DNA from: a virus
Taxonomy: Duplodnaviria > Heunggongvirae > Uroviricota > Caudoviricetes
DNA length: 64,000 nucleotides
Strand: one strand, 5' to 3'
IMG/VR virus record: IMGVR_UViG_3300032167_005013
Each line of letters opens with the position of its first letter. Position 1 is the stretch's first letter. Positions 146-58,604 of this stretch are shown here, piece after piece. Position numbers and translations under genes: made by a program. The notes beneath the pieces were generated by a model, which did no database searches, was not told where the DNA came from, and was given only the letters and a program-made list of their open reading frames with translations.

Positions 146-1330
146 TTATTCCAAATCAACAAATTTTTGTTTTATTTTGATAGAATAAAACAACCCTATT
201 GAGTAAAAAACAAATAATATCACAAAAAGAGCGTTATAGGATAGTCCCATTATATTGATAATGAAATTGGATAATTGATTACCCGACAATCCAGCAAAAG
301 CCCATGCTGATAATGTAAGCCCATGCAAGGTACTAATATTGCTCATCCCAAAATGACTTTGAATGAGTGTTGGTAGTGTACTGAACCCACCTCCATATCC
401 TGCATTGACAACACATAACATCATAGGAATTACAAGAGGTAAAAATGTTCCAAATACCAATGTTAATGAAGAAGATAAAAATATTACAACATAAACCCAT
501 GCTTTATTTTTCATGAAATCAGATGCTGTTGAATAACCAAATCTTCCTACCGTATTGAAAAATGCTGTTAATGTGGCAAGTATTCCAATATTTGTGAGAC
601 CTGAGTATAAACCAATGTTTTTTTCAAATGAAATCAATGCTAAACCACATGTAATATTAAGGTAAAAAACAAACCATATTTGACGATATGTTTTATTTTT
701 AAAAATTTTTAGTGTCTCCCTAAAATGTGTTTTCACAACCGGTTCCACCCACCCATCAGGCTTTTTTATACAATACGTTGCCAAACCCATAAGAATTATA
801 CTAACGCCTGATATTATACCTAATGTCCATTCAACTCCCATATTGAAATTACACCATTCAATGAACGGGGAAAATATGACTTTAGATAGGCCAAACCCCG
901 ATATTGCAATTCCTGTTGCAAGTCCTTTATGTTCTGAAAACCAAAGCATTAATGTTTTTACCGGGCTCAGATAACCAATACCCAAGCCAATGCCCATAAG
1001 ACAACCGTATGATAATATAAGACCTATTCTACTTTTCAAATATATTGCTATAATTGACAATACAAGACCTGATACAAAACATATAGTTGATAATAGTGAA
1101 GATTTTTTGACATTTTTTTCAACAAAACTCCCACCAAAAGCCGCTGACATACCTAAAAAGAAAATTGCCAACGAAAAACAAATCTCAATTGAAGCAACGC
1201 TACAGCCTATTGATGTTGCAATCTCATCTTTCAATAATGACCAACAATATACACTCCCAATACAAGAGTGTATTAATAAAGCAGGTATAGCACCTCTAAA
1301 CCATTTATTATTTAATATTTCTTTCCCCAT
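146..1330 (-). CDS. MFS transporter, oxalate/formate antiporter (OFA)-like
   Basis: ~12 hydrophobic segments; GSVYCWS start, GxGLGIGYLSPVKTLMLWF and YGGGFSTLP motifs typical of OFA-family MFS proteins. Confidence 0.85.
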   Translation of the reverse strand: MGKEILNNKWFRGAIPALLIHSCIGSVYCWSLLKDEIATSIGCSVASIEICFSLAIFFLGMSAAFGGSFVEKNVKKSSLLSTICFVSGLVLSIIAIYLKSRIGLILSYGCLMGIGLGIGYLSPVKTLMLWFSEHKGLATGIAISGFGLSKVIFSPFIEWCNFNMGVEWTLGIISGVSIILMGLATYCIKKPDGWVEPVVKTHFRETLKIFKNKTYRQIWFVFYLNITCGLALISFEKNIGLYSGLTNIGILATLTAFFNTVGRFGYSTASDFMKNKAWVYVVIFLSSSLTLVFGTFLPLVIPMMLCVVNAGYGGGFSTLPTLIQSHFGMSNISTLHGLTLSAWAFAGLSGNQLSNFIINIMGLSYNALFVILFVFYSIGLFYSIKIKQKFVDLE

Positions 1331-1947
1331 AGTATAAATCCATAAACACAGTTAATTGTCCAAAACACATATTGCGCCACCATGAACCAATTTTCTATTG
1401 ACACCCACATTGCAATGCATATTATATCTTGAATAAACCATAATATCCAATTTTCCTTATATCTTAACATCATCAAAATCTGTGCCAAAATACCTAAGAC
1501 AGTAGTGATGCTGTCAAACATAGGATGTGAATCCCCTAAATTATCAAGAATAGCCCATCCCATGATGGTTAATCCGACTACAACTCCAAATACCCCAAGT
1601 ATTGAATGGAAATCCAATGATTTTGTTTTTACAAGTTTTTCATCATCAAGGTTTTTCAACCATATGAAAATACCGGTAATCATTGTAAGAAAATAGAAAA
1701 GATTTTCAATGATTTTTCCATGAAGACCCTCCTGTACGCAAATTATCGTATATGTACTCATCTGTAGAAAAGACCAAAAGTAGTAAGTCATTTTCTTTTC
1801 ACTACACTGTACAACGGATATCATGCCAGCAATACCACTTACAAATGATAAAAAACTGTCCTTAGTGACTATATATACAATCACCTGAGACAACAAACCA
1901 CATGCAAGCAGCATCGAACCAAAGTCAATTTTCCTTCTTATCTCCAC
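1312..1947 (-). CDS. pnuC: PnuC/PnuT-family vitamin (nicotinamide riboside or thiamine) transporter
   Basis: 7-8 TM helices; DSITTVLGILAQILMMLRYKENWILW matches the Pnu-family signature. Confidence 0.85.
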   Translation of the reverse strand: MEIRRKIDFGSMLLACGLLSQVIVYIVTKDSFLSFVSGIAGMISVVQCSEKKMTYYFWSFLQMSTYTIICVQEGLHGKIIENLFYFLTMITGIFIWLKNLDDEKLVKTKSLDFHSILGVFGVVVGLTIMGWAILDNLGDSHPMFDSITTVLGILAQILMMLRYKENWILWFIQDIICIAMWVSIENWFMVAQYVFWTINCVYGFILWGKKY

Positions 1948-2171
1948 TTCTCAAAATCTTCCGGATATTCAACATAAACCCATGCCCAAACATCGTCAAT
2001 GATAAAATCAATATCGGGTTCGGGAAAATTATAAAAGGCTTTTCTTCCTTTTTCCTCAGAGTAAATACCATAATAGAACCAACTGCCGTCACGAGTAAAA
2101 AGAACCCGCTGCCCCTCATAAGGAACTTCTTCCTCAGTCAGGAACCATGTCAAATGTGTAACACTATTCAT
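1938..2171 (-). CDS. hypothetical protein
   Basis: ATG overlaps the upstream stop; fits operon packing. Confidence 0.55.
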   Translation of the reverse strand: MNSVTHLTWFLTEEEVPYEGQRVLFTRDGSWFYYGIYSEEKGRKAFYNFPEPDIDFIIDDVWAWVYVEYPEDFEKWR

Positions 2172-3249
2172 CGTTAAATTTTTTAATAAATTTCTCTGCT
2201 TTGTTTCGTTTTTCCATGTATTTTTTACGTCGGAATTCATTGGTTTTTTCAATGTTTTCCCTTATCTTGTCATTATGCTTCCTGCATTTCTCATAGGTAT
2301 TTAATTCTCTTGCCCAATCTTCAATCGAAGCCGCAGAAATATCTTTCTTTATTGCCTTGTACCCATCATAAGGTGAAAGAATGTCGACAGTATCATCAAT
2401 GATATATTCCCAATCCCATCCGTTATTGTTTGAAAATTTTATATTGAACCAATTATCTGTTTCGGATTCAACATTACCGTTCGCACGTGGATTTACAGCA
2501 AGTTCCTCAAGTGTATTTCCTATCCAACCCTGACCATTCCTATGATAACCGTTCATTGTAAGGAAATCAATAGACGATTTATCATTGAATTTATAACCTG
2601 TTTTCAATGTCAAGGCCTGTGAACTATTAAAACCGAAATCTCTAAAACCCGCTGTCTGCTGATGTCCTGCCCTTACATGTAATCCCCATCCATTCTGAGG
2701 AAGCATATTATATACTGCAGTTGCCTTAAATGAATTAAAACTACCGCCACCAAAATAAACATATGAGTCCTGTGGTTTATGAATATTGACCGATTCCAAA
2801 AGGATTCCTCCGGCCACACCCGCAATTCCATTATATGATGAAGCAGTACCCTTTTCTACCCTAACTGTCTGCATCGAAGACAAAAGGTCAGGACTGTTAG
2901 CAAAATAAGCACCATAGTCCTCAGCCTCATTCCATGGGCAACCATCAAGAGATACATTTATACGGGTTTGGTCAAGTCCTCTGATTCTAAAGTAACCGTA
3001 ACCAAATTCTGTACCATTGTCATTCAATGAAATAATTGATGGCATCTTACTAAAAACATTTGATGGTTCCTGTCCGTAATTGGTTTCAGTAAGCGTTTTA
3101 ATATCAACTACCGAACTTACTGTTGTTGAACTACTATAAAATGAAGATACGACAATTTCGTCAAGCGCCACAACCGTAGTATCTGATTCCTGTGCAAACG
3201 TAATAATCGCAATAAATGCAGAAATAAATGCCAAAATAAATTTTCTCAT
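2164..3249 (-). pseudogene. truncated TonB-dependent receptor (signal peptide, plug, start of barrel) fused to an unrelated C-terminus
   Basis: Signal peptide, LDEIVVSS TonB-box region, GYGYFRIRGLDQTRINVSLDG plug motif; barrel stops near aa 268 and a charged coiled tail follows. Confidence 0.75.
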
Positions 3250-6578: not shown

Positions 6579-7319
6579 TTATTTTTCCAAATCAATTTCT
6601 TCTCTAAACATAATTTTCCTATACTCGACAATCCCATCAGTCACCACTATATAGTAATTAGGAAGAAGGTCGTTAACATAAATCCCCTCTTCATTGCCTA
6701 ATTTCATAAATTCATCAAATTTTTCAGCCCAAACAACCGTATGTCCCACAACCTGTTTGTACCCCTCAAGTTTACTCTTGCTTAATGCATTTGGCCTTAT
6801 CCATATCGGTGAATTTGAAATAGTATCCCCCTCTTCACTGTAACCCACATGACAGTTCCAAGCAAGAAGTCTTGTATCGAACTCAGGTCCGTTGATTTCT
6901 TCTAATGTATCCACGTTACATAGTTCTTCAAACCACCATTTTGAAACACCTGCATGTGAATAAAGAACACCATCTTCAATGTGAAGAATCTTCATTTTTC
7001 CTGATTTTAGTGCATCTACCAGTAACTCATGAGCATTAAAGTAAGTGACCTGATTATACCCGCTGTATTTTTCTCTATAATCATAATAATGAAAATCATG
7101 ATTTCCTAACAGCAATATAACCCTATCCTCGCCCAATTCTTTTTGGAGTTTCAATATCTCTTTGAAATTAAAAATCTGCCTTGCCGGATGATATTTCTTT
7201 TCATGGGAATCAAAATAGTCCCCTAAAAAAATAAATTTATCCGCATCAGGATTCTCATCAACTATTTTCCTCCATATTGCACGGCCATGTATATCACCTA
7301 TAGCAACTATCTTACTCAT
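6579..7319 (-). CDS. calcineurin-like metallophosphoesterase
   Basis: GDIHG, GDYFD, GNHD, SHAG, GHT motifs. Confidence 0.9.
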   Translation of the reverse strand: MSKIVAIGDIHGRAIWRKIVDENPDADKFIFLGDYFDSHEKKYHPARQIFNFKEILKLQKELGEDRVILLLGNHDFHYYDYREKYSGYNQVTYFNAHELLVDALKSGKMKILHIEDGVLYSHAGVSKWWFEELCNVDTLEEINGPEFDTRLLAWNCHVGYSEEGDTISNSPIWIRPNALSKSKLEGYKQVVGHTVVWAEKFDEFMKLGNEEGIYVNDLLPNYYIVVTDGIVEYRKIMFREEIDLEK

Positions 7320-7368
7320 AATCAATTATATATGTTTAAAATTTGCGATTTGCAAATCGCGAATTCAT

Positions 7369-14146: not shown

Positions 14147-15346
14147 TTAGAAGGCATTGCCTCGGTCATCCACAGTTAGGTTCTCCATAAGCGTATATTC
14201 GGTGCTACGGACACCTATTATTCTTTCTCCCTCTAATAAGATATTCATCGCTGCATTTATATCCCTGTCATGATGTTCGCCACATTGTGGACATGTCCAT
14301 TCCCTGTCACTTAACTTCAAATCATGTTTCTTATATCCACAAACTGAACATGTTTTACTGCTTGGATAGAATCTATCAACAAATATTACTTGTTTTCCGT
14401 TATTGAATGCTTTATCAACAAGTATTGATTTAAATCTATAAAATCCTACTTCTTGTATCGCTTTCGCTAACTTATGATTCTTTAACATTCCACTAACATT
14501 TAAGTCTTCCATGAAGATTACATCATAATATATAAGCAATTCATTTACTACACTATGAATATAATTCTCTTTCTGATTGTTTAACTTCTCAAATGCCTTT
14601 GCAAGTTTGATTCTTGCTTTATTTCTGTTATTAGAACCTTTTTGTTTCTTTGATAATTGATGTTGGAGTTTTGCTATCTTCTGTTCTTGTAATTTATAGA
14701 AATGTTTATTTTCAAACACTTCACCATCACTTGTAATTACAAAATCTTTAACTCCTAAGTCAATACCAACATGTTCATCAGTTAATTTGAATTTAACAAC
14801 TTCTTCATTTGGTAACTCAATTAAGATAGATAAGAAGAAATTACCACTCTTGGTTTTCGATAAGGTAGCACTTCTTATTCCATCACGATATTGTCTGAGT
14901 CTGTTGTGATTCAAATCAGAACATCTGAAACGAATATCTTTTAAAGGTTGTGTCAACGTTATTTTTCTTGTTTCAAATGTATTCTTCTTTGAAATCGCTT
15001 CAAGTGGGAATAACGCTGACTGTTTATCTTTTTTACTTTTGAATTTTGGGAAACCATTATGTTGTTTAAAGAACTTCTCATAAGCAGATAGCATCTGCCT
15101 TATTGACTGTTTCATTATCTTTGTGTTTTCTTCTTTCAACCATGAGTATTGTTCATCCTTCAATAGTTCATTATGAAAATACTTTGATAAATCAGTTAAA
15201 CCTAATGATTTCTTATTTTCAGTATATTCTTGTTGTTTACGAGCAAGTGTTTGATTATAAACAAAACGGTAACACCCCAATACTTTATTCAGTTTCAGTT
15301 CTTGCTCCTTATTTGGATATAATCTTATTTTAATTGCTCTTAACAT
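14147..15346 (-). CDS. tnpB: RNA-guided endonuclease TnpB
   Basis: KIRLYPN HTH, GIDLGVKD RuvC-I, MEDLNV RuvC-II, CSVCG/CPQCG zinc finger, DRDINAA RuvC-III. Confidence 0.95.
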   Translation of the reverse strand: MLRAIKIRLYPNKEQELKLNKVLGCYRFVYNQTLARKQQEYTENKKSLGLTDLSKYFHNELLKDEQYSWLKEENTKIMKQSIRQMLSAYEKFFKQHNGFPKFKSKKDKQSALFPLEAISKKNTFETRKITLTQPLKDIRFRCSDLNHNRLRQYRDGIRSATLSKTKSGNFFLSILIELPNEEVVKFKLTDEHVGIDLGVKDFVITSDGEVFENKHFYKLQEQKIAKLQHQLSKKQKGSNNRNKARIKLAKAFEKLNNQKENYIHSVVNELLIYYDVIFMEDLNVSGMLKNHKLAKAIQEVGFYRFKSILVDKAFNNGKQVIFVDRFYPSSKTCSVCGYKKHDLKLSDREWTCPQCGEHHDRDINAAMNILLEGERIIGVRSTEYTLMENLTVDDRGNAF

Positions 15347-15371
15347 TATTCTTTTTATATTTCTCCTAAAA

Positions 15372-15539
15372 TTATTTTTCTTTGTATTTCGTAGTTAACT
15401 CGATGATTTCAGTTTTTTGGGATAATCTATCACTAAGTTCTTTACTTATCTCGTGTAACATTTTATTAATATATGGTTCATCATTAATGTATCCGTTTTT
15501 CTTTAAATCATCATACATTTCCTTTGTGAACTCTGCCAT
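15372..15539 (-). CDS. small hypothetical passenger ORF within IS607
   Basis: Fills the tnpA-tnpB gap. Confidence 0.45.
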   Translation of the reverse strand: MAEFTKEMYDDLKKNGYINDEPYINKMLHEISKELSDRLSQKTEIIELTTKYKEK

Positions 15540-15543
15540 ATCG

Positions 15544-16161
15544 CTATTCCCCCATATTCTTTTTCTTTCTTCTTTCAGCACTTCGCTTACCATAGAATTT
15601 ACCTGAGAAACTTGCCAATAAAGACATCATGTCAGCAGCAAGTTCTTCCTCATTTGATACATCTAAACCATTTATAACAATAACCTCACATCCATAACTT
15701 TCAAACATTTTCTTTATGAATTTGAATTGGAATCGTGTAAGTCTGTCTTTATGTTCAATAACCAATTTATTAACCTTTCCTTGTATAATCAAATCAGTTA
15801 ATCTGATGAATCCACTTCTATTATCATTTAAACCACTACCAACATCTTTAATGATATGCGTAACTAAAAGTCCTTTCTTAGCACAATACTCTGATAATCT
15901 TTGTGATTGTCTATCCAAATCTCCTTTTTGCTTTTGTTCATGAGAACTAACCCTTGCATATGTTGCACAAACAATAGGTTTGGCTTCAGTTTCTTTCACT
16001 TCTTTACCAAGAAATTCATCAAGTGCATCAGTATCATATCTTCTATGTCCACCAGCAGTTTCAAGAGGTTTCAGTTTATTTGCTTTATCCCACTTTCTTA
16101 GAGTATCTTGAGATACATTGAGATATTGTGCTGCTTCTCCAATTTTCAGTAATCTTCCCAT
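15544..16161 (-). CDS. tnpA: IS607 transposase (MerR-type HTH + serine recombinase)
   Basis: KIGEAAQYLNVSQDTLRKW, YARVSS, DVGSGLN, DRLTRF. Confidence 0.95.
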   Translation of the reverse strand: MGRLLKIGEAAQYLNVSQDTLRKWDKANKLKPLETAGGHRRYDTDALDEFLGKEVKETEAKPIVCATYARVSSHEQKQKGDLDRQSQRLSEYCAKKGLLVTHIIKDVGSGLNDNRSGFIRLTDLIIQGKVNKLVIEHKDRLTRFQFKFIKKMFESYGCEVIVINGLDVSNEEELAADMMSLLASFSGKFYGKRSAERRKKKNMGE

Positions 16162-17592: not shown

Positions 17593-18351
17593 TTAAAACT
17601 TGAATTTTCTTAACTGCGATTTATGGACGAAAACACGTTCAACCCTAACATTCTGTGCAACACCCATCTTAGTTGTGCCCATACCATCTTTTCTTGCTTT
17701 CTCCCATATACAGACAAAATCAGAAGGTGCTGAATATTCCGACACCATTATCTTATGCCCCTTATCACACATTCCACGGCACCACTCCCAAAACAGTTCA
17801 TTATCAAACCCGTTCTTATTGTATCCTTTAGTTGATGCATAAGGCGGGTCACAATAGATAAAAGAATTCTTAGGGTATTCCAATGTTCTATAATCACCAT
17901 GCACAAATGTACAACTATCAAGGCCAATGAAACTGTTTATATGTTTCAAAAGTCCTCGTCGTGCCTCAGCAATATGGTCCTCATTTCTGTTAGGATTAAA
18001 ATGTGCATATCCATTCCACCATCCACATCCGTTTGAACAGGCATTTCCCACGTAACCAAGGAGGGCTGAATCATATTTCCCACTATTGGTTAAACAATCT
18101 TCGCGCATTGCCTTGTATTCGGTTTCAGTAACTCTCTCAGGTATTTTAAATGTATTGTTTTGAATTGCTTTCCACATGGCAATTACATGTGGATTAATAT
18201 CCATTGCAATTTTATTGTCGTGGTTTATTACCGCAAATGAATTCATTCCACCGCCAAACGGCTCAATATAAGCCTGACACTCATCAAGATTTCTCTCAAT
18301 GAGTGCTTTTAAGTTTTTCATCAAACCTCTTTTACTTCCTTGATATCTCAT
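17593..18351 (-). CDS. DNA adenine methyltransferase (D12/Dam-like)
   Basis: RYQGSK, YIEPFGGG, YCDPPY, VSEY. Confidence 0.88.
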   Translation of the reverse strand: MRYQGSKRGLMKNLKALIERNLDECQAYIEPFGGGMNSFAVINHDNKIAMDINPHVIAMWKAIQNNTFKIPERVTETEYKAMREDCLTNSGKYDSALLGYVGNACSNGCGWWNGYAHFNPNRNEDHIAEARRGLLKHINSFIGLDSCTFVHGDYRTLEYPKNSFIYCDPPYASTKGYNKNGFDNELFWEWCRGMCDKGHKIMVSEYSAPSDFVCIWEKARKDGMGTTKMGVAQNVRVERVFVHKSQLRKFKF

Positions 18352-19145
18352 TAAATCTGTGGGATTATATTGCGGTCCTTAAAAAACGTTCTGTTTGTTT
18401 CATCATTAAGCGGAACAGCCGGGAATACCTCAGGGTTATGTCTTGTATATACATCACCATTATTGTTGGTAAATTGGGTTTCAACCCTATAGATAAATCT
18501 ACCGAACTTCCATCTATCAGGATACTTATCCCAATCCTCACCGTTATATTCCTTAAGTTTTTCAATCTGTTGGTCAACAAGCAATCCCATAAGTTCCTTG
18601 TGAGGAAAAAATGTCTGTGCTGTCTGCGCCTTAGAATTCCTGATACAGTCATTCTGTCTATACAACAACCATGCAACTACATCATTATAAGTTGGAACAT
18701 TCCACGCCTTGCAATCAAATTCATAAAGGCCAATCTTCTCAGCAATGACCTGAGAACCTTCAATACTTGTCCTCAATTCATACTGCATCATCAGATTATT
18801 AAACTTTGCAGTTGCCATAGATGCAACAATAGACAATATCTTGGTAAGCCTATATCCAAAAAATGAGTCTGTTGTTGGCGTTTCGAAATCAGTAATAACA
18901 AGAGTGATTTCATCTGACTGTGTATATGCAAATTTACAACCCTGAACATTCTTTACCAAGTATTTTGCTGTTTCATCCATCATATCAATGAAATCATCAT
19001 CAAAAGGCTTCGCAAACTTCTTCTTGATTTTGGAAGAAAAACTTCTTCCATCAAGCATTACCAACACATAAGAGTTAGGCATAAGCCTATAATCCGTAAG
19101 ACTACGAAAATACTCACATTTCTCTTTTAAACTATCAAACTGCAT
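18351..19145 (-). CDS. tRNA(His) guanylyltransferase Thg1-like protein
   Basis: LDGRSFS, KPFD, YTQSDEI, FDCKAW, YRQNDCIRNS. Confidence 0.92.
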   Translation of the reverse strand: MQFDSLKEKCEYFRSLTDYRLMPNSYVLVMLDGRSFSSKIKKKFAKPFDDDFIDMMDETAKYLVKNVQGCKFAYTQSDEITLVITDFETPTTDSFFGYRLTKILSIVASMATAKFNNLMMQYELRTSIEGSQVIAEKIGLYEFDCKAWNVPTYNDVVAWLLYRQNDCIRNSKAQTAQTFFPHKELMGLLVDQQIEKLKEYNGEDWDKYPDRWKFGRFIYRVETQFTNNNGDVYTRHNPEVFPAVPLNDETNRTFFKDRNIIPQI

Positions 19146-20011: not shown

Positions 20012-21208
20012 TTATTCTACTCCAACGAGATACTTATAGACCTCAATTTCATGTGGGTCTCCCATTGCTTTCGTAGGCACATCGGATAACTTAACACAAT
20101 TATACACAGGCTGTCGAGGATTAACCTGAAACTTGGTAAGTTTGCAGACGATATTCATCGGTTTGATTCTGACACCACAATCAACATCATAAAGATTATT
20201 CGACAAATTGGTTCCAATTCCAAACGATACTTTTATCCTGTTTTCAAAATGTTTCTTCAATTCAGCACACTTCTCAAAAGTAAGGGCATCTGAAAAAACA
20301 ATTGTCTTGCTCATAGGGTCAATACCATATGATTCATATTTCTTGATTATCTTTTCACCGAACTCAATAGGGTCTCCCGAGTCATGACGCACTCCATCGA
20401 ACAACTTTGCGTTCTTCCTTGAAAACTGTCTCAAGAACTCGTCAACTGTATATGTATCAGTGAGGACTGTACCGAGATTACCGTCATATACCTTACTCCA
20501 ATTTTCCATCACAATATGATTTGCCTCCTTAGGCGAAGTTACTGCTGCAGTTGCCATAAACATTTCATGGGCCATTGTTCCCATAGGCTTCAAACCATAT
20601 TTCTTCGCAAAATAGACATTGGATGTTCCCACGCAATTAGCGCATTTTTTTGAAAGATACTCACACACAGCGTCTTGTACATCGAAAGAATAACGTCTGC
20701 GGGTTCCAAACTCCATGAATTTGAAATCTTCGGTCATTGCAATTTGACAGTTCTTTCTGAGAGGCTCATGAACCTGATAGTTAAAATCTCCCAAATTTAT
20801 TGCATAATATTTGTAATAGATTTCAGATACTGTTGCAAGAATAGGAATTTCATATAATGAAACTTTATATATCACATCAGTGACATTAATATGAAGATGC
20901 TGTTCCTCATCAAGCCATGCGTTAATCTTATTATGGTCAAAACGGAATGTCTTAAGCCATTCCCAGTAATGTCTTGGGATATATGGAATGTTTTCAATAC
21001 ACCACTCGCACTCTTCGTCAGTGAGGGCAAGGACATCAAGGTCCATAAATGCATTTTGTAGTGTAATCAGAAACATCTGATTAAATTTCATGCCATTTCG
21101 GTCCTTAAATGTAAATGTTCCTCTTGCTTCAGGATACATTTGCTGATAATAATAATTCATTGACAGTTTATATAAATCATTGTCCAGTATCGATTTAATT
21201 GTACTCAT
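20012..21208 (-). CDS. pncB: nicotinate phosphoribosyltransferase
   Basis: LDNDLYKLSM, EFGTRRR, GTSNV, GTMAHE, LTDTY, RHDSGDP, FSDAL, FGIGT, KLSD. Confidence 0.95.
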   Translation of the reverse strand: MSTIKSILDNDLYKLSMNYYYQQMYPEARGTFTFKDRNGMKFNQMFLITLQNAFMDLDVLALTDEECEWCIENIPYIPRHYWEWLKTFRFDHNKINAWLDEEQHLHINVTDVIYKVSLYEIPILATVSEIYYKYYAINLGDFNYQVHEPLRKNCQIAMTEDFKFMEFGTRRRYSFDVQDAVCEYLSKKCANCVGTSNVYFAKKYGLKPMGTMAHEMFMATAAVTSPKEANHIVMENWSKVYDGNLGTVLTDTYTVDEFLRQFSRKNAKLFDGVRHDSGDPIEFGEKIIKKYESYGIDPMSKTIVFSDALTFEKCAELKKHFENRIKVSFGIGTNLSNNLYDVDCGVRIKPMNIVCKLTKFQVNPRQPVYNCVKLSDVPTKAMGDPHEIEVYKYLVGVE

Positions 21209-24148: not shown

Positions 24149-24229
24149 TGCGGATGAAGGGACTCGAACCCCCACGCCTTTCGGCAACAGGTTTTGAATC
24201 TGTCGTGGCTACCATTACACCACATCCGC
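24149..24229 (-). tRNA. tRNA-Leu(CAA), CCA not encoded
   Basis: GCGGATG/CATCCGC-A acceptor, TTCAAAA anticodon loop, long variable arm GCCGAAAGGC, TTCGAGT T loop. Confidence 0.9.
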
Positions 24230-24424
24230 ATAAAACTCCGATTAAAGCACCGCTCGGAGCAACACGTCCAACCAACGATTTGGCCAAGGGCTTGACTTAC
24301 ATGCACATAGATATGATGAACAGGGACTATAAGGGATTCTTACCATATAGTTTGAACATCCTATGACAAAGCCTTGTCGTTTCGTTTCCACCTTAACCGC
24401 GAATCCGGTGGACTAACTTTAGTC

Positions 24425-24748
24425 TTAAATATATGCCTCCCAATAGGTAACAACAAAATCAAGTGTGATTGAATCAACTTCCCCTTTTTCTGTTGTTATT
24501 CTTATTTTGAACGGACCGCAATGGGAATAGAAAGTATCTCCTTTATAATCTCCGAGTCTTCCTAACAACCCATATATCATATTTCTTGCGTCTTCTCTTA
24601 AATAGGTTTCATCAGGAATGCCCCTATTTTCAAGGTCACCTCCCATATAAACCTCCCAATTAAGAAGTTGCATTGTCTTCGCAACTTTATTGAAATCAAA
24701 ATTATCCATGATTTCATTAACAAGTTGCTGTGTTTTACTTATTTCCAT
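24425..24748 (-). CDS. hypothetical phage protein inside the ncRNA unit
   Basis: IMDNFDFNKVAKTMQLLNW motif. Confidence 0.75.
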   Translation of the reverse strand: MEISKTQQLVNEIMDNFDFNKVAKTMQLLNWEVYMGGDLENRGIPDETYLREDARNMIYGLLGRLGDYKGDTFYSHCGPFKIRITTEKGEVDSITLDFVVTYWEAYI

Positions 24749-24762
24749 ATTTTTTAAAATTG

Positions 24763-24880
24763 ATGTGATGGAGGGATTCGAACCCCCGGTCCCGGTTTAG
24801 CAAACAGTCTCAAACATTGCTGTTCATTTCCATAAGCAGGAAACTAAATTTACGGAGCATTACCACTTTGCTACATCACA
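24763..24880 (-). ncRNA. 118-nt tRNA-like RNA with a branched, enlarged anticodon arm
   Basis: TGTGATG/CATCACA acceptor, GCA-AAGTGGTAA-TGC D arm, GGGGG-TTCGAAT-CCCTC T arm; two hairpins replace the anticodon loop. Confidence 0.75.
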
Positions 24881-24893
24881 TGCCATAATTGAT

Positions 24894-25170
24894 AAAGGAT
24901 ATATGTGCTGTTACGCCAAAGCATTCTCGTATGTCCTACCGAAAATCGGGTTCATAACCCCGCCATACTGCCAACTGATGAGGAATAACGGTGGACTTTT
25001 ACCGAACCTCAAAAGGCAGACCAAACTCGAAGTTTGTCATGTTGTGGAATATTCCCTCACGGCACATCACCTACGGCTTTTCATCTCACGCAAGCATATC
25101 GCACTCACAGGGCACTTTCTGCGCACTCCTTAGAAAATGGCTGCTTCCAAGCCAATTTTTATATCCTTTT
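24894..25170 (-). ncRNA. structured RNA mimicking 23S rRNA H43/H44 (uL11-binding GTPase-associated centre) with ~200-nt insert
   Basis: TTGGCTTGGAAGCAGCCAT...TAAGGAG at the 5' end and GCGTAACAGCACA at the 3' end, closed by a 10-bp AAAGGATATA/TATATCCTTT helix. Confidence 0.75.
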
Positions 25171-25175
25171 CAAAT

Positions 25176-25209
25176 GCAAATATATTGATAATATATTGAA
25201 TTACCAAAT
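25176..25209 (-). promoter_or_regulatory. Bacteroidetes housekeeping promoter driving the ncRNA unit
   Basis: TTTG-N20-TATATTTGC ending a few nt before the RNA 5' end. Confidence 0.8.
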
Positions 25210-25354
25210 ATTATTTATCTAATAATAGATTTCAGATGGACAAAATCTCTGTTTTTCGTCCTGTTCTTTCCAAAATTCCTTTAATCGTTCTTCGTATTCC
25301 TTAACATCCCGGTTAAATGAGAGTGTCGGCCACTCAGGAACAAAATTTTCAAAA

Positions 25355-25795
25355 TCACTCATTGGTTACCTCCTCCTGTACTACATGTGGTTTGTTACAA
25401 TAAAAACGAACATTCTTAATGGCGGGATATACCCATTCAAAACGTTTATCCGTTTCAAGTTTCTTGATATCTTCTCTAATTTTATTAGTAAGATGCAATT
25501 CAACTGATTTAAATGTATTTATTTCATCATCTAACTCATATTCCTTCTCCCAATAAAATGAACAACTAACAAGATGAGACGTTTCTGAATTTGACGTAAT
25601 GCTACGTTCACTCATGATTTTATCATTCATCATTGTATATTGCGAAAGGACGCCAAGTTTTTCCCTGATTATCTGAAAACCGATATTAAAAAGATTAATA
25701 ATCTCATCAGTTGTAAGTCTTTCAGGGTCAGCAACAGTCACCACATCATCAACCTTAATGGTAACATGAATATTTGATTCAACTATATATCTCAT
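25355..25795 (-). CDS. hypothetical protein
   Basis: 146-aa ORF. Confidence 0.7.
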   Translation of the reverse strand: MRYIVESNIHVTIKVDDVVTVADPERLTTDEIINLFNIGFQIIREKLGVLSQYTMMNDKIMSERSITSNSETSHLVSCSFYWEKEYELDDEINTFKSVELHLTNKIREDIKKLETDKRFEWVYPAIKNVRFYCNKPHVVQEEVTNE

Positions 25796-25873
25796 ATCAT
25801 TTCTCTAAATGGTTCTATGTTTGAAACGAGTTCATCACCATTGTAATCGACGAATAAATACAATTTTTCCATA

Positions 25874-26071
25874 TCACCTCAAAAGGGCGCATACTCCCAA
25901 TATAAGTCCCACCAAAACCAAAATAGCAATTCCAAGACCAAGTGGTATCCAAAGAGGGGCTGTTACCCACCACCAAGACCATGTAATCACATTAGTCAAC
26001 TTAAGTACCAAGAATACAATAAAAAGTACCGACATCATCGGAAACGAAATTCTAATAGTATTTTCTGCCAT
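25874..26071 (-). CDS. small membrane protein (LKLT..ITWSWWWVTAPLWIP family)
   Basis: Characteristic Trp-rich phage membrane motif. Confidence 0.75.
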   Translation of the reverse strand: MAENTIRISFPMMSVLFIVFLVLKLTNVITWSWWWVTAPLWIPLGLGIAILVLVGLILGVCALLR

Positions 26072-31076: not shown

Positions 31077-31915
31077 TACCTACCCAAACTCTTCAGATAT
31101 TTCATCTTATCTTTCGTCATCTCATTAATGGCAAAAAACATCTGCAGCGACAAATGAGGATGATAGATATTCAATTCAGGTGGCGAATCAGGATATCTCC
31201 TGACCTGTTTCTTGGTAACCCATTCTTCAAGGGACTTCGTCTGATAGTGTTTCAATATCGCCTCATCATATATATAAGGAGTATGGAACTCCATCGGCAC
31301 TTCATTTCCAACACTGTTGCAACATTTTGTTGCATTTGACGGAGTATGACTTCCATAACGTCGTTCAAATACGAGGGTTTCAAAACAGCCACGTCCTCTT
31401 ACAAATGACTTATGATGGTTATTCTCCGGAAAAGGATATTTAATCTCTTTCTTATAAGGCATGGTCTTGGTAAATCTTTCCTGTACAGGCTTCTTCTCAT
31501 AGCGAATCTTTCCGCTATCGGTATAGATTTTCCAATTTACATAAATGCATTGGAAACCATTGAACTTCTCCTGCTGTAGATACTCACTTACATTATCAAC
31601 CTTTTTCAGTTCAAGGAATTCATCAATGTCAAAAAATGCAAGCCAATCATATTCCGCATTGTATTTGTTATAACAATTAATATAAGCGGGCCATTGGTAG
31701 CATGTCTTGCCACGACAGTCCTCGACAATGACATAACCTTCTTCAATGTAATCACCAATCACATCTTCAAAACGTTCGCCATCAACATCATTGTTATCGT
31801 ATAACACTACATTGGTGAATCCTATTTTCTTATAGTGTCCCACCCATTCCCTGATATAATCATTTTCAAGTTTTGCGATTCCGCAAACCAATGTCTTTAT
31901 TCCTGTGGTTTCCAT
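31076..31915 (-). CDS. glycosyltransferase (GT2/GT92-like)
   Basis: IAKLENDYIREWVGHY..IGF, YDNN, FFDIDEF, HYQTKS. Confidence 0.85.
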   Translation of the reverse strand: METTGIKTLVCGIAKLENDYIREWVGHYKKIGFTNVVLYDNNDVDGERFEDVIGDYIEEGYVIVEDCRGKTCYQWPAYINCYNKYNAEYDWLAFFDIDEFLELKKVDNVSEYLQQEKFNGFQCIYVNWKIYTDSGKIRYEKKPVQERFTKTMPYKKEIKYPFPENNHHKSFVRGRGCFETLVFERRYGSHTPSNATKCCNSVGNEVPMEFHTPYIYDEAILKHYQTKSLEEWVTKKQVRRYPDSPPELNIYHPHLSLQMFFAINEMTKDKMKYLKSLGR

Positions 31916-32505
31916 TCCTCAATATCGTTTTCTTTCATGAATTCTCTTATCGTTGTGCCATCATCAATTGATACACCACCATCAAGCCATACATAGCATT
32001 TGATTTCAGGATATCGTTCAATAAAATTAGCAACAGTTTCTTTTACGCAATGAGAAAGAGCAATGCCACAAAAAACAACCTCACATTCAGCATATTTGCA
32101 ATTCTCAGTTGGAAAACTTGTTCGCAGTTTAATTGCATCAGCCCCATATTCTTCATATAAATAAACTTCTCCTTTAGAGATTACATTTTTATTTTGTATT
32201 CCAATACCTACCCAATTTTCAAGCCCTTCCCTTATAAATGGTATAAACTCCTTTGGTAATGATGCACCCTCAGTATATGCGACACAATGCATAGGCCATG
32301 TGCCCTCAACACCATTTTCATCTTTATTACCAATAAAACTACAATGATTAAAAGGATGCCAATCAACTGTAAAAATAACATCATCAAAATCAGGGATTAC
32401 CTTAGCAATCTTCTCAGGAAGAACTTCTCCTCCCTTTACATATAATGCACCATCAGGATGATAAAAGTCCTTCTGTACATCTACAACAACCAATACTTTC
32501 TTCAT
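31897..32505 (-). CDS. pncA: nicotinamidase/pyrazinamidase (isochorismatase family)
   Basis: VVDVQKDF..GAL, DWHP.NH.SF, WPMHCV, KG, GIALSHCV. Confidence 0.9.
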   Translation of the reverse strand: MKKVLVVVDVQKDFYHPDGALYVKGGEVLPEKIAKVIPDFDDVIFTVDWHPFNHCSFIGNKDENGVEGTWPMHCVAYTEGASLPKEFIPFIREGLENWVGIGIQNKNVISKGEVYLYEEYGADAIKLRTSFPTENCKYAECEVVFCGIALSHCVKETVANFIERYPEIKCYVWLDGGVSIDDGTTIREFMKENDIEEWKPQE

Positions 32506-33297: not shown

Positions 33298-34620
33298 TTA
33301 AATGTTTTCAGGTAGCGGGGCATTTTCATTAAAACTCAATTCAGCATGAGAAATGCTTCCATTGCTTATTTTTTTCACAAACTCTCCCTTTGAATTTAAG
33401 AAACCCCCAACGTTATAGATATCATAAGAAGTCCCGCAACACATGTACTTCCAATCATCTTTTGTTAAGTTAATGGCCGGATACTCAAATCGGTTATGCT
33501 GCACTTCTTCTCTCCTGAATCTCCCATCTTTGAATGTTAAGTATGCAACTACAGTGAAATGTATTTCAATCTGTTTTCCCTTTTCAAACTCAGCCGTAAG
33601 TTTTTCTTTCGCTTCATAATCCATGAATCCCCATTTATTGGCCGAATGTTTGTTAAGCCATTCGCTTAATAAATAACCCTGATATTTGTATTGCTTTGTA
33701 CCCTTTATACATGTAATATGTTCATCTCCGGGCTTCTGTAAAAGAAGACTCATACCCCATGAATAATTGGAATCGTCAGTTTCCACGTATTTAATCCATT
33801 CGTCAAGGCCGCCTTTCAATGTAAGGGTTTTCAAATCACTTCCTTTATAGGCTGCAGTCGTTTTATAGTTTTCGACATAAGTTGCAATATCGTCTGCTGT
33901 AATGGCGTGTTCCTCAATGAGATAATCAAGTTTATCGGTTGTTTTATAACCCACAAACTTTTTGTTTTCAACATCAACAAACGTACTCATCTTGACTAAA
34001 CGTATCTGTTCATAAGTAGGTTTCGACCACCTGTTAGGGGAATATGCGTTCTTATCTTCCTTTTCCTCCCATAAATACCATTCCATCTTACCAATATAAA
34101 TAAGATATGGATATTCTTTTGACTTATAAGCAGCACCAAGTTTAAGGTCTCTCACAATTATCTTCTCCTTACGGTCCTGAAGTTCAGTGGAAAGCCTATA
34201 ATCTTCAGAACAAACAGGAAGAAGAATCAATTCAGGCCCCTCCCATGCGTAAACAAACTCACCTTCAAGACCCTTTCCTTTTGTGGAAGTGCATTCCTGC
34301 AATATGAAAAGAAGATTTTCGAGAGTGATTTCTATTTCAAATCCACGAGGGTCATAAACTCGGCATTTTGTTTCCCTATAATTCCAACCTGATTTATAAC
34401 CCCCCACACGTTTATTAAGAACAAAACCCTCAGTAGGTTTGTTTTCAAACTCACCAATACCAAGTTCCTTGGTTCTCCAATGTTCCCATGACGTATGTTT
34501 AGCAATTTTATTCTTTTTATCAAGATAAGTCACATAAGCCAATTTTCCTGAATATGTGTTTTCTCTCTTCTGATATCCAACCCTCAATTCCTGAGGAATA
34601 TTCAATCTCTCATTTGCCAT
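33298..34620 (-). CDS. hypothetical phage protein
   Basis: 440-aa ORF; KLAYVTY...SWEHWR...RVYDPRGFEIEIT.ENL motifs. Confidence 0.8.
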   Translation of the reverse strand: MANERLNIPQELRVGYQKRENTYSGKLAYVTYLDKKNKIAKHTSWEHWRTKELGIGEFENKPTEGFVLNKRVGGYKSGWNYRETKCRVYDPRGFEIEITLENLLFILQECTSTKGKGLEGEFVYAWEGPELILLPVCSEDYRLSTELQDRKEKIIVRDLKLGAAYKSKEYPYLIYIGKMEWYLWEEKEDKNAYSPNRWSKPTYEQIRLVKMSTFVDVENKKFVGYKTTDKLDYLIEEHAITADDIATYVENYKTTAAYKGSDLKTLTLKGGLDEWIKYVETDDSNYSWGMSLLLQKPGDEHITCIKGTKQYKYQGYLLSEWLNKHSANKWGFMDYEAKEKLTAEFEKGKQIEIHFTVVAYLTFKDGRFRREEVQHNRFEYPAINLTKDDWKYMCCGTSYDIYNVGGFLNSKGEFVKKISNGSISHAELSFNENAPLPENI

Positions 34621-35137
34621 ATTTTTCTAATGTTTCCGTTTCTATTTTTATTACTTCTCTTACCCATGTGAGGCATTTGCCCAAAAGATTCTGTCCAAGC
34701 CAATTTTTCTCATCATCAATCATCTGGTCATCCTCACCTAAACCAACACCCCACACTTTATCATATGGTGACGCTTCGACAAATGTCTTTCCATCAAACT
34801 CAGGATTAAGAAGAAAATCCCGTAATTCTTTATTATAAACGAATTTTTTGTATAATGCACTTTTCATCACATTTTCCTTCACAAGATTCCAAGTATCCTC
34901 ATTAAATCCTTTCACTTTCCTACCCAATTTCTTGGCCTCCTTAGGTGTTTCCGCATCAAGAATCAATTTAGCAGTTTCATCATCACCAAACATTATTGCT
35001 TTCCACCACATGAAAAACTGTTCACTTGTAGTGAATTTATACCAACAATTATCAACGCCAAAAAATGTTATATTGCAAGGATAGAAATTAGATAACTCCC
35101 CACCCCAAAAGAAAACATACTTATCAGTTACTCTCAT
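34610..35137 (-). CDS. NADAR (YbiA-like) family protein
   Basis: SNFYP, SEQFFMWWKA..FGD, KKLGRKV, EASPYDKVWGVG, GQNLLGK. Confidence 0.92.
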   Translation of the reverse strand: MRVTDKYVFFWGGELSNFYPCNITFFGVDNCWYKFTTSEQFFMWWKAIMFGDDETAKLILDAETPKEAKKLGRKVKGFNEDTWNLVKENVMKSALYKKFVYNKELRDFLLNPEFDGKTFVEASPYDKVWGVGLGEDDQMIDDEKNWLGQNLLGKCLTWVREVIKIETETLEKYGK

Positions 35138-44816: not shown

Positions 44817-45272
44817 TTAAAGACATATATTTAAACGTTCTTTTGCATGTTCAATCATATCTTTATGGTCAAATGCAAGAGGAGGGAGTTGTCTGAGACT
44901 AAACCATTTACATTCGACAGCATCGTCACCTGCAAAAAATTCAGTATCGCATGGCACAACGACAATTGATAGTACCGAAATTACCCTTCCTCTCTCATCC
45001 CTGTCAGGATTATCGAAAATCTTATCATTAAAATATTTAAAGCATGACCTATTAATGTCAATACCCGTTTCCTCCTTAACTTCCCTCTTTACTGCATCTT
45101 CAAGAGTTTCATTTATTTCCATGTAACCACCAGGTAAAGCCCAACAGCCTTTATGAGGCTCATTTTTCCTCTTAATGAGCAGGATATCAATTCCTGCATT
45201 TTCATTGTACTTTAAAACCGCACAATCAGCTGCCAACGACGGCATTGGATATTCATATACGTATGTTCCCAT
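44817..45272 (-). CDS. Nudix hydrolase, ADP-ribose pyrophosphatase-like
   Basis: WALPGG...ETLEDAVKREVKEETGI Nudix box, RD.RGRVIS, AGDDA, LAFDH. Confidence 0.88.
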   Translation of the reverse strand: MGTYVYEYPMPSLAADCAVLKYNENAGIDILLIKRKNEPHKGCWALPGGYMEINETLEDAVKREVKEETGIDINRSCFKYFNDKIFDNPDRDERGRVISVLSIVVVPCDTEFFAGDDAVECKWFSLRQLPPLAFDHKDMIEHAKERLNICL

Positions 45273-45273
45273 T

Positions 45274-46434
45274 TTAATTCTGTTTTACAACCCAAAGGCT
45301 ATGATATTCATTATGTTCAGGAAATTCAAAATTCTGAACCATATTGTAAAATACATTCTCAGGTATCTGTCCCTTACGTCTCTTGATATTATCCTTAAAC
45401 GTAGGTGCCTCAATATACCAATAGTTCCAACGGATTTTCTTTCCTCCTAAGAAACCTTTCAATTCCTTTCTTCTCTTGGCAGATAGATTAATGTTATTCA
45501 ATATAACAGGACGATTATTTTCTATTGCCTCAAGAAGCCTTTCATTAAAAATCTTGGTAACTTTATTCTCCTGTTTGTTTGTTCCAACAATCTTTTCATC
45601 TGCAGAACAATAACCCAATTCCACCCTGATATCATCTCTTGACAACACCACAGGGTTATCCATCTTATGAATGAGTGTATTCTCAATGAAAGTATTCTTG
45701 CCTGACCCAGGAAGCCCAATCATCACATTGACCTCAACGGCATCGTCAGCAAATTTAGGAAGACTACCACTGCAACCGTAAGGACTTTCACCAATCTTGA
45801 ACATATTCAGCCATGAAATGTTGTTCAATTCTTCACCGATGATTAGGAATCTTTCAAGAATCTTCTTGTCTTCCTCTTTAGTAGAACAACTTGGTTTCTG
45901 AATTGCACCCTCAAGGTCACACATCTTCAGCCTGTATATATCATAATAAGGGAGAGTTTTTGTAATTTTATCAACAACATCCCTTGGCTTCTTGGCTTTT
46001 TCGAAGAAGAGAGGCTCCATATGCCACTTAACCATATGAACAATATACTCACGGTCATAAAGAGGCCAATCCCACAGCATTTCACGTGCAAGTTTTGAAC
46101 CTACATTTTCATGACCATAAGAGTGCCAATTACCATCTTTTTCTCCCTTGAAAGTCGTCTTAGGCTTTCCAACATCATGGAAAAGTGCTGAGAGCATAAA
46201 AAGTCTCTTCTCGTGAAGGTTCTTCTCAGTATCTTCTTCCATAAATCCCAAAGCATGCTTGCACACAAGACGGGTATGTTCCAATGTATTTCCCTCACTA
46301 TGCCAACGAGGATTCTGCATAGTATTCTCCATATCTCTAAAATGTGGAAGTTTCAAAATGAAATCCCAATTCAAGTTCAAAGTATTATCAATAAAAAAAT
46401 CTTCAAGTACCATATTATTCTTTTCCAAATACAT
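45274..46434 (-). CDS. HD-domain phosphohydrolase fused to a P-loop polynucleotide kinase
   Basis: QNPRWHSEG..LEHT, LFHDVGK, GHE; GLPGSGK, SRDDIR. Confidence 0.85.
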   Translation of the reverse strand: MYLEKNNMVLEDFFIDNTLNLNWDFILKLPHFRDMENTMQNPRWHSEGNTLEHTRLVCKHALGFMEEDTEKNLHEKRLFMLSALFHDVGKPKTTFKGEKDGNWHSYGHENVGSKLAREMLWDWPLYDREYIVHMVKWHMEPLFFEKAKKPRDVVDKITKTLPYYDIYRLKMCDLEGAIQKPSCSTKEEDKKILERFLIIGEELNNISWLNMFKIGESPYGCSGSLPKFADDAVEVNVMIGLPGSGKNTFIENTLIHKMDNPVVLSRDDIRVELGYCSADEKIVGTNKQENKVTKIFNERLLEAIENNRPVILNNINLSAKRRKELKGFLGGKKIRWNYWYIEAPTFKDNIKRRKGQIPENVFYNMVQNFEFPEHNEYHSLWVVKQN

Positions 46435-57257: not shown

Positions 57258-57291
57258 TTTGTTTGTTTGGCATGATATTTGTATATTTGCA
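57258..57291 (+). promoter_or_regulatory. housekeeping promoter with nested sigma54-like box
   Basis: TTTG-tttgtttggcatgatatttg-TATATTTGC. Confidence 0.7.
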
Positions 57292-57314
57292 TCGTAGATT
57301 TTAAAGTAAAAAAT

Positions 57315-58604
57315 ATGCTATATACTGATTTCTTAAAACACAAAGTTTTTACGATTCTCCATGACGTCGCAAAGGAACTTAACGTTCACGCATATGTTGT
57401 TGGGGGATATGTTAGAGATTGTTTTCTTGGTATAGAAAACAAAGATATTGACATTGTTGTTGAAGGTTCAGGAATTGAATTTTCAGCGGCTTTTGCGGAA
57501 AAAGTTAATGAAAAACATCATTTCTATGAAAATTATGGAACGGCAATGGTCCGTTATAAAGGAATTGAAGTCGAATTCGTTGGAGCGAGAAAAGAAATGT
57601 ATGAGAGGGGGTCACGAAATCCGATTGTTGAAGACGGCACGCTTCTTGATGACCTTCTAAGAAGAGATTTTACCATTAATGCAATGGCTTTATCTCTCAA
57701 TGATGATTTCGGCGCCCTTGTTGACCCTTTTGACGGGAAAGCCGACCTTGAAAAAAGAATTATAAGAACTCCAGGTGGTATCCCTAATGTTACATTTTCT
57801 GATGACCCCCTCAGAATATACAGGGGTATACGTTTTGTTGCAAAACTTTCTAAAGAAGGTGAATTATTCAAAATTGATGACAATACATGGGAGGGAATGA
57901 AAAACAATACAAGTAGAATCTACATTCTTACTCAGGAACGCATCACTGAAGAGATTGATAAGATTCTGAGTTATGATAACTCAGCCCTCGGTTTGGAATT
58001 GATTAATCTTCTTGGTATTTGGGATTTAACGTTTGAATATGACGGGCGTACAATGGTAAAAATTGGGATGGTTGCTAAAATCGATGAAGTTCTTGATAAA
58101 TATCAAAACAAAAAACTCCTAAAATGGGCAGTATTACTCGGTAAAGGCGCATTTACTCTTGAAAAACTTAAGGACCGTGTTCAAGGAATGAGATTACCTA
58201 ATTCCACTTACAATTTCATTGAAAAGGTTGTGACAAATAGAACTGTATTCACAGATAAGCAACCGCTTAGTGTTTTCAGAAAATTTGTTGCTGAAAATGG
58301 TCTTGCAATATATGATATATATAATTATTGGTTTTGTCATGAGCTTTATTATGCAGATGAAACTAATGTACCTTTAATTTTTGAAAAATATAAAAGAATT
58401 AGATTCTTGTTTAGTTCATTAACGCAATTTATTGATTTTAAACTTCCGTTAAACGGAAATGTAATTAGTGAATATATCGGGGTTCCACCGGGTCCACAAC
58501 TTGGTTTGATTCTTAATAGTATTAAAGAAGGCATTTTCGATGGTAGAATCGAAAATACTGTGGATGGCGTTTATTGGTGGTTGTTTAACACATTTAAAAA
58601 CTAA
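57315..58604 (+). CDS. cca: CCA-adding tRNA nucleotidyltransferase (class II)
   Basis: VGGYVRD, DIDIVV, ARKEMY..GSRNP, DLLRRDFTINAMA, FSDDPLR, ERITEE. Confidence 0.9.
   Translation: MLYTDFLKHKVFTILHDVAKELNVHAYVVGGYVRDCFLGIENKDIDIVVEGSGIEFSAAFAEKVNEKHHFYENYGTAMVRYKGIEVEFVGARKEMYERGSRNPIVEDGTLLDDLLRRDFTINAMALSLNDDFGALVDPFDGKADLEKRIIRTPGGIPNVTFSDDPLRIYRGIRFVAKLSKEGELFKIDDNTWEGMKNNTSRIYILTQERITEEIDKILSYDNSALGLELINLLGIWDLTFEYDGRTMVKIGMVAKIDEVLDKYQNKKLLKWAVLLGKGAFTLEKLKDRVQGMRLPNSTYNFIEKVVTNRTVFTDKQPLSVFRKFVAENGLAIYDIYNYWFCHELYYADETNVPLIFEKYKRIRFLFSSLTQFIDFKLPLNGNVISEYIGVPPGPQLGLILNSIKEGIFDGRIENTVDGVYWWLFNTFKN

Follow-up and report, generated by a model that had tools for sequence, protein, structure and literature searches.

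A phage RNA family that copies the GTPase-associated centre of 23S rRNA and may act as an off-ribosome decoy

The rRNA mimicry of ribosomal-protein leaders is the closest known principle to the RNA element described here. In the excerpted text of PMC10931766, which cites a 2018 review by Meyer on rRNA mimicry, leaders such as those of L1 and L10(L12)4 are RNAs outside the ribosome that imitate the rRNA site of a protein in order to bind that protein; they are cis-acting 5' elements of cellular operons and imitate their models loosely. In contrast to these leaders, the phage mimic is a separate gene in tRNA arrays and reproduces a whole domain nearly base for base. Phage tRNA arrays share with the mimic its place and strand, and the processing is probably the same. 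According to the excerpt of PMC13096335, phage tRNAs counter tRNA-cleaving defences. The tRNAs replace damaged host molecules, whereas an rRNA domain is not replaceable in trans, so that the mimic must act by binding something. A third comparison is the ToxI mimicry seen in escape from ToxIN, where a phage-borne RNA likewise takes the form of a host RNA and thereby neutralises a protein (PMC3475682, as excerpted); there, however, the RNA, the target and the scale are different, and the imitation arose in escape mutants rather than as a broad natural family.

Phages are also described to encode ribosomal proteins, for example bS21 and bL12, and in the excerpted text of PMC6375957 the sole mention of uL11 is as part of the stalk. 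A review that compares jumbo phages (PMC7824862) contains no occurrence of '23S', 'rRNA' or 'L11'. No description of a phage-encoded copy of the GTPase-associated centre was found in the full-text literature searched. Neither Rfam 15 nor this literature describes any functional centre of the ribosome that is copied as a separate RNA encoded in trans. Among the structured non-coding RNAs that adjoin phage tRNA genes are ROOL and GOLLD, whose function is unknown; neither is, to our knowledge, known to copy an rRNA domain. Both are presumably included in Rfam 15, of which no family matches the element.

The whole stretch of DNA analysed here, 64,000 nt in length and hereafter called the window, is of phage origin; it encodes tail fibres and proteins of many phage families. 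DNA records that contain its sequence come from metagenomes of animal gut and faeces, and we infer that the host is a member of the Bacteroidota. Positions 25169–24894 on the minus strand encode a predicted RNA of 276 nt that rebuilds the 58-nt uL11-binding domain. The features of the element and its surroundings, in the direction of transcription, are as follows.

25177–25208, minus strand: promoter-like motif of Bacteroidota type, TTTG-N20-TATATTTG, ending 7 nt upstream of the RNA.
25160–25169, minus strand: 5' strand of the closing helix, AAAGGATATA, 10 bp, replacing the top of H42.
25134–25159, minus strand: H43 mimic, consisting of an unpaired A (1056), a 3-bp helix, UU and the 17-mer hairpin GGCTTGGAAGCAGCCAT.
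25125–25133, minus strand: 5' strand of H44 together with the junction, C-TAAGGAGT, corresponding to 1082–1090, with TAAGGAGT itself at 25132–25125.
24921–25124, minus strand: insert (expansion domain) of 204 nt, making H44 a three-way junction; base pairs form between its two ends (GC/GC).
24917–24920, minus strand: conserved TTTG linker between the insert and the H44 loop.
24904–24916, minus strand: top and 3' strand of the H44 hairpin, GCGTAACAGCACA, equivalents of 1091–1103, with the A1095 loop.
24894–24903, minus strand: 3' strand of the closing helix, TATATCCTTT, partner of 25169–25160.
24763–24880, minus strand: tRNA-like element, 13 nt downstream of the RNA, scoring 41.3 bits with the Rfam tRNA model and not called by ARAGORN.

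The minus-strand sequence quoted in the initial annotation is present in the window exactly as given, and the new 10-bp helix that was proposed there in place of H42 is formed by 25169–25160 with 24903–24894. The same annotation stated that both functional loops are kept. This is true of the A1095 loop but not of A1067, since the window copy has G at that position. An insert of about 200 nt was expected between H43 and H44; its size is right (204 nt), but it interrupts H44 itself, separating the equivalents of 1090 and 1091. The promoter read just before the RNA corresponds to the motif that ends 7 nt upstream of it, and TTTG-N20-TATATTTG corresponds to the Bacteroidota promoter consensus. This pattern has 20 matches in the window, mostly on the gene strand, against 3.95 ± 2.12 expected, and none of 100 shuffled sequences reaches 20.

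The 1051–1108 domain of 23S rRNA alone folds and suffices for uL11 binding. In the fetched E. coli 23S sequence, GGCTTAGAAGCAGCCAT is found at 1062–1078 and GCGTAATAGCTCAC at 1091–1104. The 17-mer GGCTTGGAAGCAGCCAT of the window, at 25153–25137 of the minus strand, is identical to 1062–1078 except for G instead of A at 1067, and the copy of H44 is close to its model. The 3-bp helix (1057–59/1079–81) is formed by 25158–25156 with 25136–25134, AAA/TTT in the window. Besides the 17-mer and this helix, the element retains the junction UAAAG, the position of the bulged A1088, the pairs 1091–1100 and 1092–1099, and a GUAAYA loop with A1095. It differs from the GTPase-associated centre (E. coli 1051–1108) in that it is stand-alone, phage-encoded and closed by an arbitrary helix, with the rest of 23S rRNA absent; it has a U1090–A1101 pair, the UUUG linker and, in the family as a whole, a domain of 52–331 nt in H44; and the window copy carries G at 1067. 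With up to two mismatches allowed, the window contains a single match to the 17-mer, compared to 0.00 expected (none in 100 shuffles). The energy of the single-sequence fold is unremarkable against shuffles (z = -1.31); it is the family and its covariation that speak against chance.

A search of the whole window with Rfam 15 at gathering scores yielded two tRNA matches only. At E-values up to 10, nothing in the region 24600–25400 matched the element, and there was no LSU, leader or Intron_gpI match. The same is true of 20 related loci, in which no Rfam 15 family, LSU, leaders and Intron_gpI included, matches the element or its insert; the initial annotation had named an existing Rfam family as what would remove novelty, and none describes this RNA in the window or at these loci. 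When 56 elements were compared with the whole E. coli 23S rRNA by blastn-short, consistent matches were seen only at about 1040–1100, so the insert is not rRNA-like. Two further positions, near 1971 and 2265, were also matched repeatedly, but they merely resemble the conserved motifs by chance. A bacterial 23S gene or fragment was rejected, as no LSU match appears at E-values up to 10 and the likeness covers only 1051–1108. A ribosomal-protein leader was rejected as well, the window having no ribosomal-protein gene and no Rfam leader match. A group I intron in an rRNA-like exon was likewise discarded, given the absence of an Intron_gpI match and the members that have a 24-nt hairpin (L148) or no insert at all (L013 and L083).

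The element belongs to a large family of phage RNAs that is under clear structural selection. A scan of IMG/VR for the exact 17-mer with A or G at 1067 returned 118 loci (about 240 stretches estimated). The junction motif follows the hairpin in 110 of these loci, with 104 instances directly after it and 6 beyond a second insert. An H44 loop within 40 nt of the 17-mer, at a spacing like that of rRNA, was seen in one instance only, the self-closed and insert-free L013. A second scan, anchored on the 3' motif, returned 119 loci (about 310 stretches estimated, chance matches included); 87 distinct elements have an H43-like hairpin upstream, and the other 24 are truncated members or chance matches. 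In 185,579 species genomes the 3' 16-mer occurs at 121 loci, of which 6 passed a strict H43 test; another four (L146, L148, L221 and L226) were judged members by eye, and the remaining ones are chance matches in coding DNA. The genomes that passed the strict test are all metagenome-assembled (Ruminococcus, Chloroflexota, Paludibacter), except Clostridiaceae strain 9 (L132). The window element has the self-closing helix of free sequence, by which the equivalents of 1051–1055 and 1104–1108 pair, the H43 17-mer with its 3-bp helix, and a phage genome with a tRNA nearby, as well as the family motif made up of a YUAARGAGU junction, a self-closed insert, the UUUG linker and GCGUAAYAGCACA.

The carriers include virus genomes of 81–225 kb with direct terminal repeats, estimated to be complete. 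With blastn ('distant'), none of 50,697 phage records matched the window region, the conserved blocks being too short; cultured carriers were found by searching with a relative and with the E. coli domain. They are Cronobacter phage GAP32, Pectobacterium phage CBB, Xanthomonas phages XacN1, XaC1 and XbC2, Serratia phage BF, several Erwinia phages, Yersinia phages fHe-Yen9-03 and fHe-Yen9-04, Aeromonas phage 4_4572, and Pseudomonas phages pf16, Milchi, Astolliot and UNO-G1W1. In the three cultured phages examined, the element lies in an unannotated gap. In GAP32 (L363, 2668–2960; JN882285, 289502–289794) the mimic fills such a gap between two hypothetical genes, and a stretch of T comes after its closing helix, which may thus double as a terminator. 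One viral contig (L052) has two copies of the mimic on the plus strand, with the 17-mer-sized segments 601–617 and 919–935 lying 318 nt apart and a tRNA-Pro between them. The GAGU of the junction, the UUUG linker and A1101 are common to the window and to phages of Gammaproteobacteria and differ from E. coli rRNA, which argues for one family spreading among phages and against recapture from each host. Cultured carriers, in which the element is unannotated, infect tractable hosts, for example Pseudomonas putida (phage pf16). The family provides a testable entry to the role of non-tRNA RNAs in phage tRNA arrays.

Structural conservation was evaluated in an alignment of 60 distinct members, composed of the window element, 55 IMG/VR loci and 4 genome loci, by counting 27 pairs of the rRNA-derived structure. 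Paired cells make up 87.0% compared to 67.9% in shuffles. The covariation score is 0.503 versus 0.147 for shuffled alignments, none of 500 shuffles reaching the observed value, and partners slid out of register score 0.08–0.16. Two-sided changes occur at all 13 aligned pairs of the closing helix. All three pairs of the 1057–59/1079–81 helix covary, the middle one being UA in 23 members, GC in 18, AU in 9 and CG in 5. The pairs that close the insert covary too (2 of 2; GC 33, AU 16 and UA 5 for one, GC 23, AU 21, CG 7 and UA 3 for the other). U1090–A1101 is UA in 57 of 60 members and CG in 2. Among homologues, which the initial annotation had proposed as a check of its reading, the closing helix is thus kept by covariation and both loops are mostly kept. 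Its view that the RNA is not a random scrap of rRNA agrees with a self-closed mimic of the H42–H44 domain whose closing helix covaries in homologues.

Conservation of single bases is uneven. Positions 1083–1085 and 1087–1090 each have one base in at least 55 of the 60 members, the linker has T in 56–58 and G in 53, and A1101 is present in 58; E. coli rRNA has U at 1101, and a real 23S rRNA contig of run X17 also reads GCTCAC. Strict constancy of 1091–1099 in the 60-member set is partly due to the selection of members. Position 1067 is A in 49 members and G in 11, and in a set not selected on H43 C and T occur there too; this variability argues against a strict need for the adenine contacted by thiostrepton and factors. 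In the latter set G1068A and A1070G are also found, and changes in the H43 stem are compensatory. Among members located solely by the closing helix, the H44 loop also reads GTAGTA, GTAAAA, GTAGCA, GTAGAA, GTGACA or GTCATA, so that 1095 may be G or C, 1096 G and 1097 A, and in one member (L066) 1092 and 1099 have changed together in a compensatory manner. The fold-defining core varies far less than the loop bases, although the way of finding members accounts for part of this constancy. We also considered whether the UUUG linker pairs with UAAA (1083–1086); this is unsupported, since members with U at 1086 keep the linker unchanged.

The insert turns H44 into a three-way junction. The order of its parts is G1087–C1102, U1090–A1101, the insert helix, the UUUG linker, G1091–C1100 and C1092–G1099 with the loop. 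Across the family, inserts range from 52 to 331 nt and contain recurrent sub-motifs; a module near the 3' end of the insert is present in many members, with a variant in the window. No sequence is common to all inserts. The type of insert seen in the window recurs in L036/L077 and L265 with compensatory changes, three sequences being too few to prove a fold. At the other extreme, the genome member L148 has a plain hairpin of 24 nt, and L013 and L083 have no insert. Six of 119 motif instances have a second insertion site, immediately downstream of the H43 17-mer. In L085, L104, L111, L048 and L068 this position (alignment columns 37–96), which precedes the 3' strand of the 3-bp helix, holds an additional hairpin or an insert of greater length.

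In 38 of 60 loci one or more tRNA genes lie within 600 nt, invariably on the strand of the element and often flush with it; 22 loci have none. In L007 one tRNA ends at 580, the alignment slice with the element occupies 582–762, and the next tRNA starts at 763; in the cultured phage pf16 the element is likewise set among same-strand tRNAs, with tRNA-Asn and tRNA-Pro on either side. Such flush packing suggests release by tRNA-processing enzymes. In the window, a tRNA-Leu lies 0.7 kb downstream of the element. The acceptor, D and T arms of the tRNA-like element at 24763–24880 are normal, but 58 nt replace its anticodon loop. It may be transcribed together with the RNA or serve as a signal for processing. 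At L036, the locus closest to the window, a sub-threshold match to YrlA (Y RNA-like; 40.2 bits versus a cut-off of 69) lies beside the mimic at 719–843. Some mimic arrays contain tRNAs with a CTA anticodon, that is, amber suppressors to which ARAGORN gives the label Pyl (L023, 815–901; L056, 179–267; L046, 1052–1123), and L039 has a tmRNA 0.3 kb downstream of the mimic.

The element was found in contigs of four RNA libraries from two studies, which show no strand, ends or level. A 361-nt contig of run X16 (24791–25151, 3 differences) joins the mimic to part of the tRNA-like element, and a 233-nt contig of run X17 (24918–25150) has no differences. Contigs of runs X18 and X19 represent relatives, with 15 and 13 differences, respectively. 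In the X18 contig the flanking sequence departs from that of the window and yet forms a closing helix again. The contigs stop at 25150–25154, where the sequence equals true rRNA, and the 5' end is therefore not readable there. Absence of RNA contigs over 24222–24770 and 25198–25900 was not counted as evidence. Presence in RNA libraries is suggestive of expression of the element, although such libraries may contain DNA.

We propose, with a probability of about one half, that the RNA is an off-ribosome decoy for host uL11 or for another protein that reads the shape of the GTPase-associated centre; more generally, the phage RNA is probably a lure for a host protein or toxin whose normal site of action is the ribosome. 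A stable non-coding RNA would be transcribed from its own Bacteroidota-type promoter or, in most relatives, cut from a tRNA precursor by tRNA-processing enzymes. Its two ends would fold into an autonomous GTPase-associated centre (1051–1108), with the variable domain projecting from the three-way junction of H44. The free RNA could then capture a host factor that recognises the shape of the centre, most likely uL11 itself, and the capture could alter signalling by, or attack on, the ribosomes of the infected cell, for example by blunting the uL11-dependent RelA response. If this is the case, the family would represent a new viral way to manipulate ribosome signalling or evade attack on the ribosome, and would offer RNA engineering a natural, compact uL11-binding module with a tolerant insertion site.

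Several observations lead us to infer uL11 binding and the effects downstream of it. The copied span is just the minimal uL11-binding domain plus a closing helix of arbitrary sequence; the free sequence of the helix below the domain means that the copy leaves out the site where the L10 stalk protein binds. The bases facing factors and thiostrepton vary and the core of the fold is steady, which fits a partner that reads shape, such as uL11, better than one that depends on bases. No phage uL11 gene is present in the 39 mimic-bearing virus records, 17 of which are at least 90% complete, and any uL11 partner would thus be that of the host. Against capture of uL11 stands the large pool of this protein, most of it bound to ribosomes, which a sponge could deplete only if both its copy number and its affinity were high. 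In addition, A1067 and A1095 are still in the majority, and the factor-facing loops may therefore matter. Nor does capture of uL11 account for the conservation of the UUUG linker or for inserts that are large and conserved in part. Only tentatively do we extend the proposal to the family as a whole, as ribosome-part decoys that phages of hosts from many phyla might release from tRNA operons to capture uL11 or an immune effector, thereby switching off RelA/ppGpp or shielding translation. Host takeover or counter-defence by such RNAs would be of a new class, and would make the uL11 stalk base a battleground between phages and bacteria.

Alternatively, the RNA could be a decoy or pseudo-substrate that soaks up ADP-ribosyltransferases of the Tre23 type, nucleases or thiopeptides and in this way protects translation, much as phage tRNAs do against tRNA-targeting defences. 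We regard this as unlikely, even though the copied H44 loop is a proven toxin target: in the excerpted text of PMC8661411, Tre23 ADP-ribosylates bases 1095–1098 of 23S H44 within the fragment 1043–1123. An anti-phage RNA ADP-ribosyltransferase, CmdTAC, also exists (PMC11618068, as excerpted), the RNA is placed among phage tRNAs, and the window phage has Thg1, a CCA-adding enzyme, a kinase/HD protein, NAPRTase, NUDIX and NADAR. A catalytic toxin, however, would be poorly stopped by a substrate decoy competing with thousands of ribosomes, and the target bases vary (1095–1097, and 1067 as A, G, C or T). Nor does NADAR travel with the mimic, being present in 4 of 39 mimic-bearing virus records and in 1 of 17 complete ones. 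We know of no defence system aimed at the GTPase-associated centre, which also counts against a toxin decoy. The copied fold, perhaps bound by uL11, might instead be a nuclease-resistant handle for an insert that works as an aptamer, guide or binding site. Inserts of 52–331 nt with recurrent sub-motifs, the conserved insert type of the window with its compensatory changes in L036 and L265, and the second insertion site in 6 of 119 motif instances speak for such a chassis; still, it appears quite improbable, as members without an insert (L013, L083) or with only a 24-nt hairpin (L148) keep the copied fold, indicating that the fold itself is selected, and the inserts have neither a sequence common to all nor an Rfam match in the window and 20 other loci.

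The flush packing between tRNAs, the tRNA-like element 13 nt downstream in the window and the RNA-library contig that joins both could also be expected of a cis element of the tRNA operon, that is, a signal for processing, folding or transcription, or a uL11-sensing regulator of the neighbouring genes. Yet a processing signal needs no base-for-base copy of a ribosomal centre, the GAP32 copy lies between protein genes with the nearest tRNA 2.3 kb away, 22 of the 60 loci lack a tRNA gene within 600 nt, and there is neither a ribosomal-protein gene nearby nor an Rfam leader match; a role in cis is very unlikely in our opinion. There remains an origin as a remnant or artefact: a scrap of 23S rRNA, maybe with an intron, host contamination, or a plus-strand protein gene (ORF 24903–25133). 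The 17-mer identical to rRNA and plus-strand ORFs of 62–76 aa that overlap the element are in its favour, and we nevertheless give it hardly any credence. Only 1051–1108 of 23S rRNA is consistently matched, with no Rfam LSU or intron match; the family traits differ from E. coli rRNA; insert lengths ignore the reading frame; and, given the hairpin-only inserts, an intron is excluded in general. Covariation demonstrates that RNA pairing is selected, and the carriers include cultured phages and terminal-repeat virus genomes estimated to be complete; these two lines of evidence largely refute a remnant or artefact.

The gene content of the window contains several further groups. Genes of NAD and ADP-ribose metabolism on the minus strand (34610–35137, 20012–21208, 44817–45272, 1312–1947 and 31897–32505) comprise NADAR (E = 3.2e-43), NAPRTase, NUDIX, a PnuC-like transporter and a weak isochorismatase-like match, a toolkit that suggests counter-measures to NAD-depleting or ADP-ribosylating defences. 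Genes of RNA repair and maturation (18351–19145, minus; 57279–58604, plus; 45274–46434, minus; 6579–7325, minus) encode a Thg1-like tRNA-His guanylyltransferase, a CCA-adding enzyme, a protein with HD and P-loop kinase domains, and a metallophosphoesterase. At 14147–16161 of the minus strand, a transposase (PHROG, E = 2.9e-117) is adjacent to a serine-recombinase-like gene (E = 2.6e-59), and this pair is likely an insertion sequence. An MFS transporter and a TonB-dependent receptor plug domain (146–3249, minus strand) adjoin the PnuC-like gene at the start of the window; they are either unusual phage cargo or the mark of a host-derived segment. A full-length phage homologue of DnaJ, with the J domain, zinc-finger and C-terminal domains, is encoded at 59789–60859 on the plus strand.
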